A stretch of DNA of 37,149 bases from Helicobacteraceae bacterium. Lineage in GTDB: Bacteria > Campylobacterota > Campylobacteria > Campylobacterales > SZUA-545. Where the stretch lies: contig JAISRI010000213.1 in assembly GCA_031273735.1 (NCBI GenBank), forward strand, positions 1 through 37,149, read 5' to 3'. Positions 1,532 through 10,436 of the stretch are shown one piece after another (the stretch's first letter is position 1; every line of letters starts with the position of its first letter). Below the pieces are notes generated by a model. That model searched no databases. It worked only from the letters and a program-made list of their open reading frames with translations, and was not told the origin of the DNA. The position numbers and the translations under genes were made by a program.

Positions 1532-2527
1532 TCAAAATCTGCTAACGCTAATTGCGATCGCGCTCCATACGCCGCCGTTTTCTAACAGCGCGATCAACTC
1601 TTCAAGGCTCTCGCCGCGCCCCGCTTGCAACGCATACGCGCCTGTTTGCTCAAAACGAGAAAGCGTAAGCGGTTTTTGCGAATAGATCGCGATATAAAAA
1701 TCTTTCGCAAACTCTCCGCCGTTCGTAGAGGCTACTAAATCTAGCGTTGGATCGATACTTTGCGGAATTGTTACGCGCTTAAACGCTTTTATCGGCAAAT
1801 TGCCCGCCATTAACGCCGTTTGACCGCTATCGTATAGATTAAAAAGCGATATAAACCCGTCCGATTCCGCCGTTAAATATAATGAAAATGATTCGCCCTC
1901 TTTTAAGCGCTCTTTACTCGCGCTAATCGTTATTCGCGCATCGATTCTTTCGGGATATAACCGCTCTAAACTTTCGTCGTTCCACGCCAAAACCGCATCG
2001 TTTGTTCCTACCAACCAAACGCCGTTTTGAATATATACTTTTAGCGCTATATCGCACCCTAAAATCTCTTTTAATCTCTGCCCCGTAAAAGAGCCGTTTA
2101 GAAAGCCGCTTTTTTGCGCGCATTTTGGCTTGCCGATCTTTGCGGTTAAACGCTCTTCAAACGGACGAATATCATAACTAAGAGCCGCGAAAAAACGTTC
2201 GCCGATCGACGTTTCATAAATCGTTTCTACGCCGCTTAACTTTGCTTCGCTATAAACGCTTAGATTTCTTGTCGCGCTCCGTTCGTAACTATTGCGATCG
2301 AGCGTCGTTTGTTCTAAAAACTCCGATTTTACCTGCGTTTTTAGCGTATTGGATATTTGCGCTAGCGCCGCGTTTCGCGCCGATTGGGTATCAGCGCCCT
2401 CCCCGTAGCCTATGATAATATATTGACTAGTCGAAGGCTTGCCAAACCACGCGGGTTTGATCTGTTTTTGTTTCTCGCCGCAACCAAAAAGCAAAGCTAA
2501 ACATATAATCGGTAAAAAGATTTTCAT
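1532..2527 (-). CDS. Putative lipoprotein: LPP20-like N-terminal region plus DUF4384-like C-terminal region
   Basis: Signal peptide with LFGC lipobox-like site. GYGEGADTQSARNAALAQISNTLKTQVKSEF resembles LPP20-family lipoproteins. The C-terminal SKERLKEGESFSLYLTAESDGFISLFNLYDSGQ resembles DUF4384, a domain often found with caspase-domain proteins. Its start overlaps the upstream stop (ATGA at 2524-2527). Confidence 0.6.
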   Translation of the reverse strand: MKIFLPIICLALLFGCGEKQKQIKPAWFGKPSTSQYIIIGYGEGADTQSARNAALAQISNTLKTQVKSEFLEQTTLDRNSYERSATRNLSVYSEAKLSGVETIYETSIGERFFAALSYDIRPFEERLTAKIGKPKCAQKSGFLNGSFTGQRLKEILGCDIALKVYIQNGVWLVGTNDAVLAWNDESLERLYPERIDARITISASKERLKEGESFSLYLTAESDGFISLFNLYDSGQTALMAGNLPIKAFKRVTIPQSIDPTLDLVASTNGGEFAKDFYIAIYSQKPLTLSRFEQTGAYALQAGRGESLEELIALLENGGVWSAIAISVSRF

Positions 2528-4962
2528 AGCTCTAACTTATTATTGCCTTCGATCGTAGGCTCTTGGAGATATATGTCGCCTTTTTGCCACGATACCTTTT
2601 TCACCTCCGAAGCGGTCTTTTTATAGAGCAGATCGAGATCGATTTTATCGTTTTCCAATAGCGATCGCGTCAGATAGTAGGTAAATAATCTATGCGGTTT
2701 TTCGGGGTGCGCGGAGCTAAATTGCGCGCTTGTTCCCGCCGTAATCACCACCATTTTGCTACGATCGAATTCGGGGCGTTTGGTTTTGAATAATCCCGCC
2801 GCTACGCCCTTGAAATTTGATATATTATCGGTGCGTCCGCTAAAGCAGCTATCCACAAAGGCTATTACCTGTTTTGCCCCGCTGTTAGACAGACGGTTAT
2901 ATACCTCCGTAGCCATCAGATTTCGCTCTTTTGTTACGTAATCGACGACCTTATCTTTGGGCAAAAAATACGCCTCGCCGCCGCTTGGATTTGGTATTCC
3001 GTGTCCCGAATAGTAAAAGTAGATCGAATCGCCTTTTTGCACGTTCGCTAAAAAGCGTTTTAGGTGATCGTCAAATACGGAAGCGGTGGCGCGATCGTCG
3101 ATAAACGAATAGGTATGGCGATCGTCTATGCCGAGCCTTTTTTGCGCCGCTTTTACAAACGCTTCGGCGCTGTTTTTTGCGTAGATCACGTCGTCCGTTT
3201 CGTCGTAATGTTCCACCGCTACGACAAAGAGCCATTTTTTGGAATCGATCGGCGCTTGTTTTGCCTTTGCTATTAGCGGCGCTAGATCGTCCTGCTCGTT
3301 TCCTTGAAAACGCAGCGCTTTTACCGCAAAGCGATCGATTAGATTGGGGTTTTGCAAAACGGGAGCGTCAAAGTTTATCTTTTCGTCTTTTAACGCGACT
3401 TTAATCGGCTCGTTTTTGAAATCGCCTTTGCTTACGGAAGCGACGGCTTCGCTAAAAAACCCGTAGGGCAAACGTATATCCGAAAGCTCCATTACGTCGT
3501 TTTTGATCGCAAAGGTTACCCGCGCTTCGACTTGGTTTAATCGGTTAAACATATCTTGCGCGTCTTTTGGCGCGATCGCAAACTCTATTCTTTGTTCAAA
3601 GCCGCCGCGAACGGCGTAAATCGTAGCGTAGGCGATCTGTCTTTCCGCGTCATAGACAAAATCGCGCAGAGCGGGAGCGCCAAACTCTTTTGCCATCTCC
3701 TCGCTTAATAGCGCTTCGCGCCGTTGCGGCAGCGTCTGTATATATGTTTGGCGTTCAAGATTGCGCGCTTCGACCGCTTTGCGATAGCGCTCTTGAACAT
3801 GCTCGATCTGTTTTTCGCGCTCCGCCGCCGCCTTGTCGATACGCGCTTGAAACTCGGCTTTGGTTTCAAATTGGCTTTTTGTAAGAACGGGCGCTTCGGG
3901 GAGGCTAGGCGGAGGAATATCCGTGAAAACGGCGTATCCCGCCTTTAGCCGATCTTGGACATTTCTAGCGATTAGCGCCATTTTATCGCCCGTTTGTATA
4001 TCCCACAACCTAACGGTTTGATCGTCGCTTCCAGAAAGAGCGTATTTGCTATCAGAGCTAAAGGCGACGGAATTAACCAAAGAGCTATGCCCCGTAAATC
4101 GGCGAATCTCTCTACCTGTCTGTATATCCCATAACCTAACGGTTTTATCGCCGCTTCCCGAAAGAGCGTATTTGCCGTCAAAGCTAAAGGCGACGGAATA
4201 AATCCTGCCATCGCCTTGTCCCGCAAAGCGGCGAATCTCTTTGCCCGTCTGCGTATCCCATAGCCTAACGGTTTCATCGTAGCTTCCAGAAAGGGCGTAT
4301 TTGCCGTCGGCGCTAAAGGCGACGGAACTAACCCAGTCGCTATGTCCCGTAAATCGGCGAATCTCTTTGCCAGTTTTTATATCCCATAACCTAACGGTTT
4401 TATCGGCGCTTCCAGAAAGAGCGTATCTGCTATCAAAGCTAAAGGCGACGGAATAAACGCTAGAGCTATGTCCCGTAAAGCGGCGAATCTCCTTACCCGT
4501 TTTTATATCCCATAATCTAACAGTTTTATCGCCGCTTCCCGAAAGAGCGTATTTGCCGTCGGCGCTAAAGGCGACGGAATAAACGCTAGAGCTATGCCCC
4601 GTAAATCGGCGAATCTCCTTACCCGTTTTTATATCCCATAACCTAACGGTGTTATCGTCGCTTCCAGAAAGGACGTATCTATTATCGGCGCTAAAGGCGA
4701 CGGAATTAACCAAAGAGCTATGCCCCGTAAAGGTTTGCGAAGCGGACGTGGTAATAGCGATAGCGCTAGGACTATATACGCCGTATCTCTGGCTCTCCCA
4801 AACAACCTTATTTTGCGCGGGTTTATTCGGATCGATCCGCTTAACGGCGGGGCTAGCGTTTTGATTAGTCTGCCCGGCGATACCCAAAGGTCTTACCCCA
4901 ACGCAACCCAAAAGCAAAACCGCGCAACCGATCCATAAAAACGTTTTTATAACCCTAGCCAT
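2524..4962 (-). CDS. Secreted/lipoprotein WD40-repeat protein with C-terminal caspase-like (peptidase C14) domain
   Basis: 812 aa with an N-terminal signal and LLGC site. Six tandem 42-43-aa WD40 units span aa 78-330. A coiled-coil/unknown region spans aa 331-575. The C14 domain carries a His-Cys dyad: YSGHG (H654, nt 3001-3003) and DSCFSG (C706, nt 2845-2847). Confidence 0.85.
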   Translation of the reverse strand: MARVIKTFLWIGCAVLLLGCVGVRPLGIAGQTNQNASPAVKRIDPNKPAQNKVVWESQRYGVYSPSAIAITTSASQTFTGHSSLVNSVAFSADNRYVLSGSDDNTVRLWDIKTGKEIRRFTGHSSSVYSVAFSADGKYALSGSGDKTVRLWDIKTGKEIRRFTGHSSSVYSVAFSFDSRYALSGSADKTVRLWDIKTGKEIRRFTGHSDWVSSVAFSADGKYALSGSYDETVRLWDTQTGKEIRRFAGQGDGRIYSVAFSFDGKYALSGSGDKTVRLWDIQTGREIRRFTGHSSLVNSVAFSSDSKYALSGSDDQTVRLWDIQTGDKMALIARNVQDRLKAGYAVFTDIPPPSLPEAPVLTKSQFETKAEFQARIDKAAAEREKQIEHVQERYRKAVEARNLERQTYIQTLPQRREALLSEEMAKEFGAPALRDFVYDAERQIAYATIYAVRGGFEQRIEFAIAPKDAQDMFNRLNQVEARVTFAIKNDVMELSDIRLPYGFFSEAVASVSKGDFKNEPIKVALKDEKINFDAPVLQNPNLIDRFAVKALRFQGNEQDDLAPLIAKAKQAPIDSKKWLFVVAVEHYDETDDVIYAKNSAEAFVKAAQKRLGIDDRHTYSFIDDRATASVFDDHLKRFLANVQKGDSIYFYYSGHGIPNPSGGEAYFLPKDKVVDYVTKERNLMATEVYNRLSNSGAKQVIAFVDSCFSGRTDNISNFKGVAAGLFKTKRPEFDRSKMVVITAGTSAQFSSAHPEKPHRLFTYYLTRSLLENDKIDLDLLYKKTASEVKKVSWQKGDIYLQEPTIEGNNKLEL
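3973..4731 (-). repeat. In-frame tandem repeat, 126/129-bp period, 6 units (WD40 blades)
   Basis: Units such as TATATCCCATAACCTAACGGTTTTATCGCCGCTTCCCGAAAGAGCGTATTTGCCGTC recur almost verbatim (for example at 4123 and 4504). Protein units are nearly identical: KTVRLWDIKTGKEIRRFTGHSSSVYSVAFS.D.KYALSGS.D. Confidence 0.85.
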
Positions 4963-5480: not shown

Positions 5481-5897
5481 TTATTTAACGTCGATCTGTT
5501 TTGCGTTTTTAGATTGAGCTTTTGGAAGCGTCAAGGTTAAAACGCCGTTTTTGAAAACCGCCTCGATCGCATCTGGATCGGCGTTGTCGGGTAGGCTGAA
5601 ACGGCGTTCAAAACGTCCGTAACGGCTCTCTAAGCGGTAGTAGTCGTCCTCTTTGACTTCGTTTTCAAACTTTCGCTCGCCGCTAATGCTTAACGCGTTG
5701 TCTTTGAGATCGACCGTAATCCCGTCTTTTTCTACGCCGGGCAGATCGAGCGCGATCAGATACGCCGAATCGGTTTCGCGGGTATTAACCGCAGGACTAA
5801 AACTAGACAGATTGGGCGCGCCGTCGCCCTTTTCGCCAAACGCGTCAAGTAAATGACGGCGAAGCTCTTGAAATGGATCAAATCGTTGTAACGCCAT
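5481..5897 (-). CDS. Small heat-shock protein, Hsp20/alpha-crystallin family
   Basis: 138 aa. Alpha-crystallin domain pattern: AVNTRETDSAYLIALDLPGVEKDGITV...LSISGERK...ERRFSLP...I.A.F.NGVLTLTLPK. Confidence 0.9.
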   Translation of the reverse strand: MALQRFDPFQELRRHLLDAFGEKGDGAPNLSSFSPAVNTRETDSAYLIALDLPGVEKDGITVDLKDNALSISGERKFENEVKEDDYYRLESRYGRFERRFSLPDNADPDAIEAVFKNGVLTLTLPKAQSKNAKQIDVK

Positions 5898-5946: not shown

Positions 5947-5976
5947 ATTATACAACATTGATACAACCATTGTCAA
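5947..5976 (-). promoter_or_regulatory. Sigma70-type promoter for the Hsp20 gene
   Basis: On the minus strand: TTGACA (5976-5971), an 18-nt spacer, then TATAAT (5952-5947). Both hexamers are perfect consensus. Confidence 0.6.
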
Positions 5977-6097: not shown

Positions 6098-7228
6098 ATG
6101 GCGTCCGCATTTGTCAGCTACGCGCATGAAAACGCGAGAATCGTCGCGTCGGTCGTCGATCGGCTTGCGGAAGCCGGCTATAGCGTTTGGTATGACCGCG
6201 AAATCCGCGCCAGCTCTACTTGGACGGACGAAATCGCAAGAGCGATTGACGAGTGCGAGATTTTTATCGTCTTTTTGTCGATCGAGGCGGTCGCTTCGCT
6301 ATTTGTTCAAAGCGAGATCGAATACGCTTTTCGCAGGCAAAAGAAGATTATCCCCGTCTATCTCGATCCGATCGAAAATCTACCGCCCGGACTCGCGCTT
6401 GGACTAAACAAGGTGCAAGGCGTGGTCGGAAACGGCTCCGCGTCGATCGCTAAAAAGCTATACGTCTGCCTAGAGCAAAACAATATCCCAAAATCCTCGA
6501 AGGCGAGTTTGAAAGGTTTTTTGGCGAGCGCTTTCGTTTTTGTCGCGATCGTTTCGGCGCTAAGTTTCGCGGCGTATAGATACGAAAACGAGATCGAAAG
6601 GTTTCTACAAGTCGGGCAAAAAGAGGGAAAGCCCATCGGCGCGATCGCGCTTGCAAAAACCAAATACGCTCCCGCCGAACCGATCGAAATCAGGCTAGAT
6701 AAAGCCGCGCAAAAGGGCGCGAAAGAAGGCTTCGTCTGCGAGATTATCGAAGTCGGCGCGGACAAACGCGAACCGATCGAACGCCGCGAAGGCAAATCGG
6801 CGGGCGAAAAGATCGTTTTGCGCGCGCCCGGAATAGCGGGCGAATTTGAAGCTAGAGCTTACGCCAAAAATGGCGGGACGCTACTTGCGGTTAAACGTTT
6901 CGCGGTCGCTGGAAGCGCCTCCTATTCATACAAGATCGCTACGGACAAAACGACCTATAACGCCAGCGAGAAAATCTCGATAAAACTTAGCGGGGTCAAA
7001 AGCGATTCGATCGACAAGCGCGTAACGATAGGCGTATGGCGTATATGGTCGTCTTCAAGCGAGCCGATCGAAACGAAAATCGTCGATAAGAAAAACCAAA
7101 GCGTTACGTTTTTAGCGCCTAAAGAGAGCGGACGTTATGAGATTCGAATCTATAATAACGCGGAGATTCTTACAAGCGCGACTTTGACGGCAAAAGCCCA
7201 AATAAACGTTCGTAATCTTAGAAGATAA
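6098..7228 (+). CDS. TIR-domain protein with one transmembrane helix and two C-terminal beta-rich repeat modules
   Basis: aa 3-125 fit the TIR_2 pattern (FVSYAHEN, GYSVWYD, IFIVFLS, SLFVQSEIEYA). The TM helix FLASAFVFVAIVSALSFAAY is aa 141-160. Two similar modules end in APGIAGEFEARAY and APKESGRYEIRIY. Confidence 0.8.
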   Translation: MASAFVSYAHENARIVASVVDRLAEAGYSVWYDREIRASSTWTDEIARAIDECEIFIVFLSIEAVASLFVQSEIEYAFRRQKKIIPVYLDPIENLPPGLALGLNKVQGVVGNGSASIAKKLYVCLEQNNIPKSSKASLKGFLASAFVFVAIVSALSFAAYRYENEIERFLQVGQKEGKPIGAIALAKTKYAPAEPIEIRLDKAAQKGAKEGFVCEIIEVGADKREPIERREGKSAGEKIVLRAPGIAGEFEARAYAKNGGTLLAVKRFAVAGSASYSYKIATDKTTYNASEKISIKLSGVKSDSIDKRVTIGVWRIWSSSSEPIETKIVDKKNQSVTFLAPKESGRYEIRIYNNAEILTSATLTAKAQINVRNLRR

Positions 7229-7327
7229 GGATCGAAAGCGCCCAATTCGTTTTGCGCGTTTATCAGTTACGCCCGCGCAAACTATTCATTTAGCGATAGA
7301 AAAATATTTTGCGCGTCTTTATTATTA

Positions 7328-7336
7328 TGATAGAAT
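7328..7336 (+). promoter_or_regulatory. Extended -10 element (TGATAGAAT) upstream of the DHH gene
   Basis: TGnTAGAAT lies about 100 nt upstream of the ATG at 7438, in an AT-rich tract. No good -35 is visible. Confidence 0.35.
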
Positions 7337-7437
7337 ACTTCAAATACGAGCGTTCTGAAGATAGCGAAAAACCTGAAAAATTATCGATAAAAGCTATCCG
7401 TTTGCTATCGCTAGATTAAAGAAAAGGTTGAGGGATA

Positions 7438-8913
7438 ATGACGCTTAAAGCGATCGCTCTATACGACGAAACAATCGTTCAGTGCCACGACGCTCCCGAT
7501 CCAGATACGATCGCTTGCGGATTCGCTTTATGGCGGTATTTGACCGAACGCGGCGTAAGAACGCGGCTCGTATATTCCGGCGCGAAAAAGATCGAAAAAC
7601 CAAACGTCGTTTTGATGGTCAAACTGCTGAATATTCCGCTCGAATACGTTAGCGAATTGGATCGCCCAAAACTGTTAATAACAGTAGATTGTCAATACGG
7701 CGCGGGCAACGTTACGCGCTTTGCGTGCGATCGTTTCGCGGTTTTCGACCACCATCGTTTAGAGAGCGCCGAATCCGACGATCTAGTTATTCAACCGCAA
7801 TTAGGCAGTTGTTCGACGCTTATTTGGGATCTGTTGCGAAAAGAAGGGTTTGATTTTGCCGCCAATCCGAACGTTACGACCGCGCTGGTTTATGGCTTGC
7901 TGACGGACACGCTAGAGGGCGCGGAGTCGCGCCACCCGCTCGATCGCGATTTAGCCGAGTTTGACGGCGCGGATCATACGATCATCAAGCAACTAAGAAA
8001 CTCCGCTTTGACGATCGACGAACTGCGAATCGTCGCAAACGCGCTCTCCTCGTCGCGGCAGATCGGCTCGATCGGTCTTATAAGCGCCGAAGAGTGCGAT
8101 CCCAATCTGTTGGGCTTTGCTAGCGACGTGGCTAAACAGGTCGAAAGTTTTGATTGTTGCGTCGTCTATGCGCCGCACAACGCGGGGATAAAGCTATCGA
8201 TCAGAAGTTGCGTGCGCGAAACGATGGCAAACGAGTTAGCCGTTTTTATTACCGACGAGGTTGGTAGCGGCGGCGGCAATCAGGAAAAAGCTGGCGGCTA
8301 CTTCTCTTTACGATCGATAAACGGCGGCGCGCCCGAAGATTTTATCGCCAAAAAGATCAAAGAGTATCAATCGCGCTACGATTTTATCTACGCAAACAAC
8401 CACAATATCGATCTAGCTTCGTTTCCGCGCTATCGCAAACTGCCGATACTGGTCGGTTTTGTTAAAACGACGGATATTTTTCCCGAAGGCGCGCCGATTT
8501 GCGTTCGCACTCTTGAAGGCGACGTAGATACAAAAACGCGCAAAGATATTTTTCTTATGATCGGCGTCGACGGCGAGATATATCCGATTGAAAGGTCTAA
8601 TTTTGAAAAGAGCTACGACGTTTTAAGCGATCAGTATATCTGCCGCAACGAATACGAACCGACAATCATAAACTTGCGAAGCGGCGAAAAGAGTTCTATT
8701 TTGCCGTTCGCGCAAAGTTGCTTGCCAAAAGCGCAAACAATTATCCGCGCCGCGCCGCTTAAAAAGGAAACGAAGGTTTTTACTCGTTGGGATACGGAAA
8801 AATACTTTATGGGCAGGATCGGCGACTATCTCGCCGCGCCTTGCGACGATCCAAGCGACATTTATATTATCAAACGCGATATAGCGCATAAAACATACGA
8901 GCCGCTAGACTAA
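7438..8913 (+). CDS. DHH/DHHA1-family phosphoesterase with an unassigned C-terminal domain of about 180 aa
   Basis: Motifs seen: HDAPDPDTIACG (motif I), LITVDC (II), FDHH (III, aa 103-106) and the DHHA1-like GSGGGNQEKAGG. The region aa 315-491 matches no domain I can name. Confidence 0.8.
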   Translation: MTLKAIALYDETIVQCHDAPDPDTIACGFALWRYLTERGVRTRLVYSGAKKIEKPNVVLMVKLLNIPLEYVSELDRPKLLITVDCQYGAGNVTRFACDRFAVFDHHRLESAESDDLVIQPQLGSCSTLIWDLLRKEGFDFAANPNVTTALVYGLLTDTLEGAESRHPLDRDLAEFDGADHTIIKQLRNSALTIDELRIVANALSSSRQIGSIGLISAEECDPNLLGFASDVAKQVESFDCCVVYAPHNAGIKLSIRSCVRETMANELAVFITDEVGSGGGNQEKAGGYFSLRSINGGAPEDFIAKKIKEYQSRYDFIYANNHNIDLASFPRYRKLPILVGFVKTTDIFPEGAPICVRTLEGDVDTKTRKDIFLMIGVDGEIYPIERSNFEKSYDVLSDQYICRNEYEPTIINLRSGEKSSILPFAQSCLPKAQTIIRAAPLKKETKVFTRWDTEKYFMGRIGDYLAAPCDDPSDIYIIKRDIAHKTYEPLD

Positions 8914-8958: not shown

Positions 8959-9546
8959 TTACTGCTTATTGATCGCCGAAACTTCGCCGGCGATTAACGC
9001 TTCTCCGTCAAACTCTACAATATGCTGATCGTTTTCGTCGAGCCTTGATTTTTTATTAAGCATATAGTCGCTACCCTCGAAAGATAGATCGTAATCGTAA
9101 AGGTGAAGCGCCACAAAACGAGATACGGGAATCGTCGTTAATCGGGCGTTGTTGTTGATCACCCTTAGCGCAGCGTGGCAGGCGACGATCTGCGACCACA
9201 CGAAACACTCCGCTTGGGCGCGAATGTAGGGGTATTCGCCGCTGACTACGCCGCTTATCGTTTCGTTGTTGATCACAATGCCGTGTTCCTTTAAGATTTT
9301 CGCCGCTTCAAAACGCGCCGCGTAGGAGTTTCTGGCGCATTCGACCGCTTTGGCGATCAGGTCTTTGTATATCTGTTGCGTGTCGTGATAGATCAGCGAC
9401 TCGATCGTTTTGTTGTCGATATAGACGCCAAACGCATCCTCTTTCAATCGAAATTTGCCGTCGTAGTCGCCCTTCGCCTGATCGGCGCGGGTCTTTAGCT
9501 TTTCTAAAAAAAGCCGCTCTGGAATATCTTCTTCTTCGTTGGACAT
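8959..9546 (-). CDS. Hypothetical protein, no recognisable domain
   Basis: 195-aa ORF with an acidic N-terminus and coding-like composition. It is convergent with the DHH gene. I recognise no motif. Confidence 0.5.
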   Translation of the reverse strand: MSNEEEDIPERLFLEKLKTRADQAKGDYDGKFRLKEDAFGVYIDNKTIESLIYHDTQQIYKDLIAKAVECARNSYAARFEAAKILKEHGIVINNETISGVVSGEYPYIRAQAECFVWSQIVACHAALRVINNNARLTTIPVSRFVALHLYDYDLSFEGSDYMLNKKSRLDENDQHIVEFDGEALIAGEVSAINKQ

Positions 9547-9590: not shown

Positions 9591-10436
9591 TTAAGGTCTT
9601 TCAATAGGCGTAAATTTAAAGCCGTCTTTTTCTTTAACGACCTTGCCAATACCGGGAAAAGGAATGTGCATTCCCGCGATCTGTAAGTTGGCGTTTGCCG
9701 CATAGTTGAGCAGTTTTTTGCGCGTGGAAGCCGCCAAAACGGGATCTACGTCATATACGACGCTTTGGGACGGATCGGCGGTTTGAACCTTGATCGAATG
9801 GATCAGATCGCTAACGATAAAGAGTTTTTGCCCTTTGGATTCGATCAAAAACGCGCTATGACCGGGCGTGTGTCCTTCCGCTTTGATCGTCTTGATCGCC
9901 CTCGCGATCTCTTTGTCCCACTCGAAGGTTGCGAGCCGATCGCCATAAACTTCCTGCAATGCCATAGCCGCCTTTCTGTTGTCGTCCCCGCTACCAAGCC
10001 AATAGCCAAGATCGTTTTTGGGCAAGAAAACGGCGGCGTTCTTGAACGTAGCCTTCCCGTTTTGGATCAAGCCGCCGATATGATCGCCGTGCATATGGGT
10101 AATTAGGATAATCTCGATCGAATCGAGCGCGATATTGGCTTCCTTGAGGTTGGCGAAAATATCGCCGCCCGTTCCCGTATCGATCAGTATGGTTGGAAAC
10201 CGCGTTTGCGGCGCGGACGAACGAATAACAAAAACGTTGATCGACGACGGATTTTGATTGTCCGCCAAAACCTCTTTCACAATGGGAGCGTCTGGATCTA
10301 AGAGAATCTCCTTACCCATATTTGTATCGCGATCTTTGATGGCGATCGCTTCCAAATCGCCAACTTGGTAGCGAAAAACTCCATCTGCCCCAAAGGCAAA
10401 ACCTATCGCCAACAGCCCCAATATCAACTTTTTCAT
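9591..10436 (-). CDS. Secreted MBL-fold metallo-hydrolase
   Basis: Signal peptide MKKLILGLLAIGFAFGA. The HxHxDH motif is present (ITHMHGDHIGG), with a later GHTPGH motif and downstream His/Asp ligands. Confidence 0.85.
   Translation of the reverse strand: MKKLILGLLAIGFAFGADGVFRYQVGDLEAIAIKDRDTNMGKEILLDPDAPIVKEVLADNQNPSSINVFVIRSSAPQTRFPTILIDTGTGGDIFANLKEANIALDSIEIILITHMHGDHIGGLIQNGKATFKNAAVFLPKNDLGYWLGSGDDNRKAAMALQEVYGDRLATFEWDKEIARAIKTIKAEGHTPGHSAFLIESKGQKLFIVSDLIHSIKVQTADPSQSVVYDVDPVLAASTRKKLLNYAANANLQIAGMHIPFPGIGKVVKEKDGFKFTPIERP

Follow-up and report, generated by a model that had tools for sequence, protein, structure and literature searches.

What might a bacterial TIR protein sense when it carries, behind a single transmembrane (TM) helix, two immunoglobulin (Ig)-like modules predicted to lie outside the cytoplasm, and does it act alone? 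This question is raised by a gene at positions 6098–7228 of a 37,149-nt stretch of DNA from a Helicobacteraceae bacterium (contig JAISRI010000213.1, assembly GCA_031273735.1), the whole of which is called the window in the following. An earlier reading made from the letters alone (the sequence-only reading) had treated this TIR-TM-Ig protein as standing on its own. This view had to be given up, since the gene forms a two-gene cassette with the downstream gene at 7438–8913, which encodes a DHH-type phosphoesterase. The pairing of TIR and DHH genes is shown by gene context. Beyond that, we give somewhat better than even chances to the reading that membrane TIR proteins with variable C-termini (TIR-TM-X) and their DHH partners make up a two-gene transmembrane module for signalling or defence which would employ an NAD-derived nucleotide.

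The TIR–DHH gene pair

In the window, the pair comprises two genes on the same strand and the spacer between them:

6098..7228, plus strand: whole TIR-TM-Ig gene (TIR, TM helix, two Ig-like modules), 376 aa from an ATG start, taken from the listing of open reading frames (ORFs)
7229..7437, no strand: intergenic spacer between the TIR and DHH genes, 209 nt, with a weak promoter-like site at 7297–7325
7438..8913, plus strand: soluble DHH/DHHA1-type phosphoesterase with an extra C-terminal domain, 491 aa (Pfam DHH, PDB sequence matches)

Pairing was counted in the 80 loci of species-representative genomes that best match the query DHH protein, out of at least 572 such loci. In this survey of homologue neighbours, a TIR gene found by an iterated TIR profile directly adjoins the DHH gene in 50 loci, and Pfam adds a CAP12/PycTIR-type TIR beside the DHH gene of Treponema primitia, resulting in 51 of 80. 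Both gene orders were seen, frequently with 4-nt overlaps. The order TIR-then-DHH occurs in Campylobacterota, Desulfobacterota, Betaproteobacteria, Synergistota, Acidobacteriota, Fibrobacterota, Bacillota and one spirochaete, and start/stop overlaps are present in a deltaproteobacterium (L003), a betaproteobacterium (L004) and other Helicobacteraceae, including a TIR-TIR-DHH arrangement (L001). TIR_2 is the sole Pfam family to recur in the DHH flanks (29 of 81 scanned), the next family reaching a count of 6. Likewise, all-versus-all clustering of the ORFs within 4 kb gave no third conserved gene, only DHH and three classes of TIR recurring across lineages.

The first of these partner classes is the Ig-repeat form, distributed over five phyla, the second a short form of 278–353 aa from Fibrobacterota, and the third comprises proteins of about 830–1100 aa, some with a beta-propeller, from Lachnospiraceae, Oscillospiraceae and other Bacillota. 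Nearly all partner TIR proteins possess one hydrophobic helix 20–40 residues past the TIR domain, preceded by a flank with 5–9 Lys/Arg residues and followed by a variable C-terminus. DHH clades follow the class of the TIR partner, and the TIR and DHH distance matrices of 47 pairs are correlated (Mantel r = 0.75, 0 of 999 permutations), which is consistent with a cassette inherited and transferred as a unit and is partly due to shared ancestry.

The adjacency might also be coincidental, with the TIR-TM-Ig protein working alone, for example surface-anchored in an unrelated metabolic TIR role, and DHH being just a syntenic neighbour. Such an explanation would suit the 209-nt gap and the promoter-like site between the window genes, as well as the occurrence of each gene without the other in some genomes. 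However, it fits poorly with adjacency in both gene orders, with 4-nt overlaps in several phyla and three unrelated ectodomain classes, and with the lack of any other conserved neighbour gene, and we regard it as very improbable.

The closest genome is the Helicobacteraceae metagenome-assembled genome (MAG) Iy174_bin57, whose DHH gene is 98% identical to that of the window. A look-up for exact copies of the TIR protein in public assemblies gave no match. In related MAGs, two diverged TIR-TM-Ig paralogues (about 37% identical) stand in tandem before one DHH gene (L001:8001–10297, L010:2362–4667 and L012:1323–3637), an arrangement consistent with several sensors feeding one output. The TIR protein of the window is the orthologue of the upstream tandem member in these MAGs (54% versus 37% identity). 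The DHH-proximal paralogue is absent in the window, and a decayed remnant of it was sought in 7229–7437 and in the longer spacer of locus L009 but not found. At L009 (4568–5000), which belongs to the closest relative, the spacer between TIR and DHH carries an insertion of about 225 nt absent from the window. The majority of other taxa have no such spacer, TIR and DHH overlapping there by 4 nt.

Domains of the membrane TIR protein and its DHH partner

Within the TIR-TM-Ig gene, the following features were assigned:

6104..6478, plus strand: TIR domain, predicted cytoplasmic, aa 3–127 (Pfam TIR_2, sequence matches to solved TIRs, AlphaFold2 (AF2) model)
6314..6316, plus strand: Glu73, predicted catalytic glutamate (alignment to solved TIRs, invariance)
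6380..6421, plus strand: motif LPPGLALGLNxxQG, aa 95–108, at the C-terminal end of the TIR domain (family alignment)
6518..6580, plus strand: single TM helix of the signal-anchor type, aa 141–161 (hydropathy, AF2 helix)
6638..6907, plus strand: Ig/fibronectin type III (FN3)-like module 1, aa 181–270, predicted extracytoplasmic (AF2 beta-sandwich, Foldseek, unit profile)
6932..7213, plus strand: Ig/FN3-like module 2, aa 279–372, predicted extracytoplasmic (as module 1, plus self-match)

The sequence-only reading had described an ATG-started plus-strand ORF of 376 aa without signal peptide, bearing a TIR_2 domain, a glutamate (Glu73) at the position of the catalytic residue of NAD-cleaving TIRs, a single hydrophobic helix and two mutually similar modules. 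The ORF matches exactly, its product starting with MASAFVSYAHEN and lacking a signal peptide, and the other four claims are borne out by the results given below. Pfam TIR_2 (PF13676) covers aa 5–99 with E = 7.1e-25 and 88.3 bits (cut-off 28), and the protein also lies above the cut-offs of the Pfam ThsB_TIR and TIR models. In the AF2 model the domain alternates between beta and alpha elements, with strands at aa 4–7, 30–32, 55–60 and 83–88 and a predicted local distance difference test (pLDDT) of about 90. Searching the PDB with the single sequence retrieved Cat1, and a profile of 28 homologues added TIR-STING, the bacterial TIR 7uxr, plant TIRs (including RPP1), SARM1/TIR-1 and AbTIR.

Glu73 is aligned on the glutamate of the catalytic motif S-x-W-C-x-x-E of Cat1, plant TIRs, the bacterial TIR 7uxr and an AbTIR-like protein, and is kept in all 28 full-length homologues. 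In TIRs adjacent to DHH, the catalytic glutamate is present in 57 of 57, with an aromatic residue at position −4 in 56 of the 57 and serine at −6 in 52. With these NADase hallmarks (S-x-[WYF]-x-x-x-E), the TIR domain is by sequence of the enzyme type, and catalysis is predicted. In the motif LPPGLALGLNxxQG, which is specific to this family, the residues L95, P96, P97, G98, A100, L103, Q107 and G108 are invariant in the family alignment; the motif may form a partner or oligomer interface.

The helix following the TIR domain reaches a 19-residue Kyte–Doolittle mean of 2.33 at aa 141–159 and is modelled by AF2 at aa 141–161, and one hydrophobic segment shortly after TIR is found in 55 of the 56 homologues listed. 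In most homologues, the 15 residues before the helix are rich in Lys/Arg (often 5–9, maximally 9), versus 0–4 after it. The most likely orientation is that of a type II single-pass protein with the N-terminus inside and the C-terminus outside, because a signal peptide is missing, a charged TIR domain of 135 residues precedes the sole helix, the flanks show a positive-inside bias and relatives of the repeats are of the surface type.

Both C-terminal modules are modelled as beta-sandwiches with pLDDT mostly between 80 and 94. They match each other in pairwise BLASTP (E = 7e-9) and contain every motif quoted in the sequence-only reading, that is, YAPAEPIEIRL and YNASEKISIKL near their starts, EPIE twice, and APGIAGEFEARAY and APKESGRYEIRIY near their ends. 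Structure prediction and Foldseek gave FN3/Ig/macroglobulin (MG)-type beta-sandwich matches with E down to 2e-9. With the full receptor model, the PDB matches are exclusively generic FN3/Ig/MG tandems of receptors and adhesins, and such Ig-domain matches fill the top of the list, where the TIR fold itself is unranked. A profile of a single repeat unit detected 2325 representative proteins, 988 of them at E ≤ 1e-10, in which the unit occurs up to 14 times. In a sample of these relatives, some bear SLH, BspA-type LRR or Cu_amine_oxidN1 domains, which are cell-surface markers.

Full-length relatives of the receptor (30–55% identity, 376–652 aa, two to four repeat modules) are distributed over five phyla and come from MAGs of Helicobacteraceae, Synergistaceae, Desulfovibrio/Deltaproteobacteria, Candidatus Adiutrix, Zoogloeaceae, Azoarcus/Betaproteobacteria and Acidobacteriota. 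Every one of them is labelled merely as TIR domain-containing protein in the database. Taxa and isolate names such as Treponema primitia, Adiutrix and Fibrimonadaceae suggest an origin in termite-gut communities. Further relatives keep the TIR domain and the TM helix and carry MORN, TPR, ankyrin or unassigned C-termini. Within the TIR-TM-X family, which is much larger, the Ig-repeat form is one ectodomain variant. No DHH gene adjoins that of the TPR form, and in the case of the MORN form (L091) the contig stops directly past the gene. At this locus (L091:779–4105), the TIR-TM-MORN gene lies beside a divergently transcribed gene for a 447-aa calcineurin-like (Metallophos) phosphoesterase; here TIR may be paired in a similar manner with another type of phosphoesterase.

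The features of the DHH partner are:

7747..7755, plus strand: DHH catalytic motif D104-H105-H106 (invariant in the DHH family alignment)
8263..8295, plus strand: DHHA1-like glycine motif GSGGGNQEKAGG, aa 276–286 (DHH family alignment)
8344..8910, plus strand: beta-rich C-terminal domain, aa 303–491 (AF2; weakly PGDYG-like at its end)

The product of 7438–8913 is recognized by Pfam DHH (E = 2.8e-10, 41 bits, cut-off 28.1) and is devoid of any hydrophobic TM segment. In a PDB sequence search, its N-terminal two-thirds resemble NrnA, CnpB (Rv2837c), TmPDE, GdpP-type and other cyclic-dinucleotide phosphodiesterases and family II pyrophosphatases. DHH motifs I–IV are present, with D21, D23, D84, D104-H105-H106 and D157 invariant in the family alignment. 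In the glycine motif, G276, G278–G280, K284, A285 and G286 are invariant, and the pattern GSGGGN/H/G/S-x-EKAGG is conserved across the family, but the histidine of the canonical GGGH varies, being asparagine in the window protein. The Pfam DHHA1 model was recorded in one homologue only (P0148), and two PDB chains align up to about aa 300.

The C-terminal domain of about 190 aa is modelled by AF2 with a pLDDT of 94 and a predicted template modelling score (pTM) of 0.86 and contains many invariant aromatic and charged residues. Foldseek against the PDB gave no match at E ≤ 1e-3. In BFVD, matches were obtained to uncharacterised phage and giant-virus proteins (TMq 0.5–0.6, E down to 2e-9). The domain also partially matches proteins named PGDYG, the corresponding Pfam model being weakly found in 10 of 25 family members, and a literature search for PGDYG turned up no mention. 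The DHH family is conserved at 40–58% identity across phyla (mean column identity 61%) and is larger than the Ig-type TIR family, with 1784 matches in one search besides the at least 572 loci of the species-representative genomes. In Methylomusa anaerophila (L006:7874–13494), a DHH gene without adjacent TIR is followed by genes for a 452-aa unknown protein, a Tricorn/Calx-beta/integrin-beta-like protein of 700 aa and an nSTAND1-CHASE2 NTPase; these neighbours may be an alternative sensor set.

With such a DHH domain, the membrane TIR might also be a non-catalytic scaffold which recruits or regulates the phosphoesterase in the housekeeping turnover of nanoRNA, pAp or cyclic and linear dinucleotides. 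The resemblance to NrnA, CnpB, TmPDE and GdpP-type enzymes would fit this role, as would a DHH family that is broader than the TIR partnership and lies in conserved housekeeping synteny, and TIR domains are classical protein-interaction modules. However, invariance of the catalytic glutamate and its motif in 57 of 57 partner TIRs is unexpected for a pure scaffold, and the additional C-terminal domain, which is peculiar to this DHH family, points to a dedicated ligand or partner more than to a general NrnA-like function. Hence, a scaffold function appears improbable.

Proposed signalling pathway and known TIR systems

The sequence-only reading had suggested that a cue from the envelope or periplasm could be coupled to NAD+ depletion or nucleotide signalling, and such coupling is kept here as a possible function. 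In the transmembrane module favoured here, the variable ectodomain would bind an extracytoplasmic ligand, and ligand binding would cluster the receptors and bring their TIR domains together. The clustering step is proposed because TIR NADase activity requires self-association, as is the rule for SARM1, ThsB, AbTir, plant TIRs and Cat1 filaments. The assembled TIR domains might then split NAD+ into nicotinamide and ADP-ribose (ADPR) or a cyclic or conjugated ADPR derivative. Finally, this nucleotide could activate the DHH protein via the C-terminal domain, or the DHH enzyme could hydrolyse it and by this shape and end the signal. We lean towards the DHH protein being a nucleotide-responsive output enzyme, since it is better conserved and found more widely than the TIR protein. 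In its most specific version, the proposal describes a bacterial transmembrane TIR receptor pathway in which interchangeable sensors (Ig-like repeats, beta-propellers or short domains) cluster an enzymatic TIR whose nucleotide controls the DHH protein via a novel ligand-binding C-terminal domain; this version is put forward tentatively, at less than even chances.

Several points weigh against the transmembrane module. The topology of the receptor is assigned only from hydropathy and the positive-inside rule. The N-in orientation claimed in the sequence-only reading agrees with the bias in the family and with the missing signal peptide, whereas the query's own flanks are hardly biased, with 3 Lys/Arg before the helix versus 2 after it. 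The Ig-like fold is generic and points to no particular ligand. The adjacency rate of 64% comes from the most query-like loci and may not hold across the at least 572, and part of the Mantel correlation is owed to shared ancestry, as stated above. Moreover, 29 of the 80 DHH loci are without detectable adjacent TIR, for example in Methylomusa, and the TIR-TM proteins of L002 and L090 are without adjacent DHH gene. Finally, with 209 nt between the two genes of the window, DHH may possess its own promoter. The site at 7297–7325 scored 9 of 12 in a consensus scan, which is not above shuffle expectation, and overall the promoter and terminator scan gave counts no higher than shuffle expectation.

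Compared with the interleukin-1 receptor (IL-1R) family and Toll-like receptors (TLRs), the common layout consists of an ectodomain (Ig-like as in IL-1R), one TM helix and a predicted cytoplasmic TIR domain, and the expected shared logic is ligand-induced clustering of ectodomains that joins the TIR domains. However, IL-1R and TLRs have a signal peptide and type I orientation, while the receptor presented here would be type II with an N-terminal TIR domain and a signal anchor. It keeps the NADase-type glutamate, while the TIR domains of IL-1R and TLRs are scaffolds recruiting MyD88-type adaptors. Genes for MyD88-class adaptors are absent here, and the only recurrent partner is DHH. Due to reversed polarity, the catalytic-type TIR and the lack of adaptors, the receptor is considered an analogue and not a member of the IL-1R/TLR family. 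The resemblance of the modelled Ig-like modules to IL-1R, which is at the fold level only, would most simply be convergent. The sequence-only reading had called the layout formally Toll-receptor-like; the sequence of ectodomain, TM helix and TIR is retained from this comparison, but with its Ig-like ectodomains the protein formally resembles the IL-1 receptor more than Toll, and the polarity is reversed.

With Thoeris, TIR-SAVED CBASS, Pycsar PycTIR, SPARTA and Cat1, the receptor has in common an enzyme-type TIR with conserved glutamate and a TIR gene standing beside that of a second protein which could read a TIR-made nucleotide. Nevertheless, assignment to Thoeris was rejected, as no SIR2, SLOG or Macro (ThsA) domain is present among the window neighbours; the PADLOC ThsB models match the receptor weakly (best E 2.3e-5). 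CBASS and Pycsar were rejected as well, with no CD-NTase, pyrimidine cyclase, SAVED or cyclic nucleoside monophosphate-binding sensor in the window neighbourhood or the related loci, and so was SPARTA, whose defining partner genes are absent. CRISPR, Argonaute or cyclase genes were not found near the pair in the window neighbourhood. To our knowledge, the TIR proteins of the Thoeris, CBASS, Pycsar, SPARTA and Cat1 systems are soluble, in contrast to the membrane-anchored receptor with its large ectodomain.

The DHH/DHHA1 enzymes NrnA, CnpB (Rv2837c), GdpP/Pde2 and TmPDE share with the window protein the invariant DHH motifs, and a glycine-rich DHHA1-like motif occurs in the latter. Substrates of such enzymes are short oligonucleotides and nucleotide second messengers, and a membrane-associated DHH-DHHA1 nuclease of Sulfolobus degrades cyclic tetra-adenylate (cA4), ending the signal in a defence pathway. 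The window protein differs from the known enzymes in its extra C-terminal domain of about 190 aa without solved relative and in the replacement of the GGGH histidine by asparagine; unlike NrnA, CnpB, GdpP and TmPDE, it is genetically coupled to a membrane TIR protein.

The sequence-only reading had not recognised a described system, and no name came from PADLOC, NCBIfam or the literature either. No NCBIfam family is above cut-off for the receptor or the DHH protein. In PADLOC, the DHH protein is not represented by any model, and the receptor obtains generic weak TIR matches. A literature search, including a survey of TIR architectures and a study on gut-microbial TIRs, revealed neither a TIR–DHH pair nor a bacterial TIR-TM-ectodomain receptor. 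We know of no described bacterial TIR system that senses its trigger outside the cell. Thus, the pair could represent a novel form of TIR-based nucleotide signalling or defence, and a new type of pathway if outside-in signalling is demonstrated. If true, an outside-in TIR receptor would provide bacteria with a new route from envelope or extracellular events to NAD-derived signalling, and the ectodomain-TM-TIR layout of animal innate immune receptors would have arisen in bacteria too. Bacteria would then possess a counterpart to IL-1R/TLR signalling, and a new second-messenger pathway would be widespread in termite- and probably mammalian-gut anaerobes, concerning termite-gut Helicobacteraceae, Synergistaceae and Fibrobacterota as well as Lachnospiraceae, including Roseburia and Acetatifactor. 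The conserved DHH partner offers an output enzyme that can be tested, and a fold that is a new candidate for nucleotide binding. As cultivable or well-studied carriers exist among gut taxa (Roseburia, Acetatifactor muris and Treponema primitia), experiments are feasible.

Genomic surroundings and a possible role in phage defence

The neighbours of the pair in the window are genes for Hsp20, a 195-aa unknown protein and an MBL-fold protein, and gyrA; at other loci purE, purH, YebC and MTHFR genes are found. This context bears on a possible function in anti-phage abortive infection, where the ectodomain would detect phage adsorption, injection or envelope damage and the TIR domain would deplete NAD+, killing or arresting the cell. 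The DHH protein would be accessory, either a second effector degrading nucleotides or oligonucleotides, or a safety valve. This idea would agree with the NADase hallmarks of the TIR domain, which is weakly matched by the PADLOC models Aga_TIR, SAVED_TIR and ThsB, with highly variable ectodomains and tandem receptor paralogues, and with the recurrence of the DHH C-terminal fold in phage proteins. In addition, the cassette is common to unrelated phyla of apparent termite-gut origin by record names, which argues for horizontal transfer. On the other hand, the DHH protein matches no PADLOC model, no NCBIfam defence family is above cut-off, and the neighbours are housekeeping genes (Hsp20, gyrA, purE, purH, nadABC and YebC), with no obvious defence island and no restriction, CRISPR or other defence genes around the inspected loci. 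A full-length DHH homologue was found in none of 72,556 plasmids, and conservation at the level given above for the DHH family is unusual for a defence gene. Taken together, we consider abortive infection unlikely, and the transmembrane signalling or defence module is retained as the preferred reading.

Two DHH copies are contained in phage collections, both on unverified faecal contigs named Bacteriophage sp. One of these contigs, from human faeces, carries a TIR-KKRKK-TM-X gene overlapping the DHH gene and looks bacterial.

In a deltaproteobacterial MAG (L003:4987–16400), nadC and nadB are located upstream and nadA downstream of the TIR–DHH pair. This was seen at one locus only; such flanking by genes of de novo NAD biosynthesis is suggestive in that it suits an NAD-consuming TIR.

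In the window, the Hsp20 gene (5481–5897, minus strand) is transcribed divergently from the TIR gene and has a site at 5947–5976 that matches the sigma-70-type promoter consensus in 12 of 12 positions (TTGACA-18-TATAAT). The order Hsp20/TIR(-TIR)/DHH/195-aa gene is kept in the Helicobacteraceae MAGs L001, L009, L010 and L012. The 195-aa protein itself (8959–9546, minus strand) shows only a sub-threshold NagA_N match and is not conserved downstream of DHH in other phyla. It is followed by a gene for a secreted-looking MBL-fold protein (9591–10436, minus strand). The anti-Pycsar model Apyc1 matches this protein weakly and below threshold (17.7 bits with a cut-off of 50, E = 0.0025), which probably reflects merely the shared MBL fold. 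On the other side of the pair, an 812-aa protein (2524–4962, minus strand) combines a lipoprotein signal, whose lipobox reads LLLGC, with six or more WD40 repeats and a caspase-like domain at its C-terminus, the latter found at aa 621–769 by the PADLOC caspase model (E = 1e-8). Its gene overlaps the downstream gene of an LPP20/DUF4384 lipoprotein (1532–2527, minus strand) by 4 nt. An exported WD40-caspase fusion is unusual and may belong to a separate envelope-associated conflict or proteolysis system.

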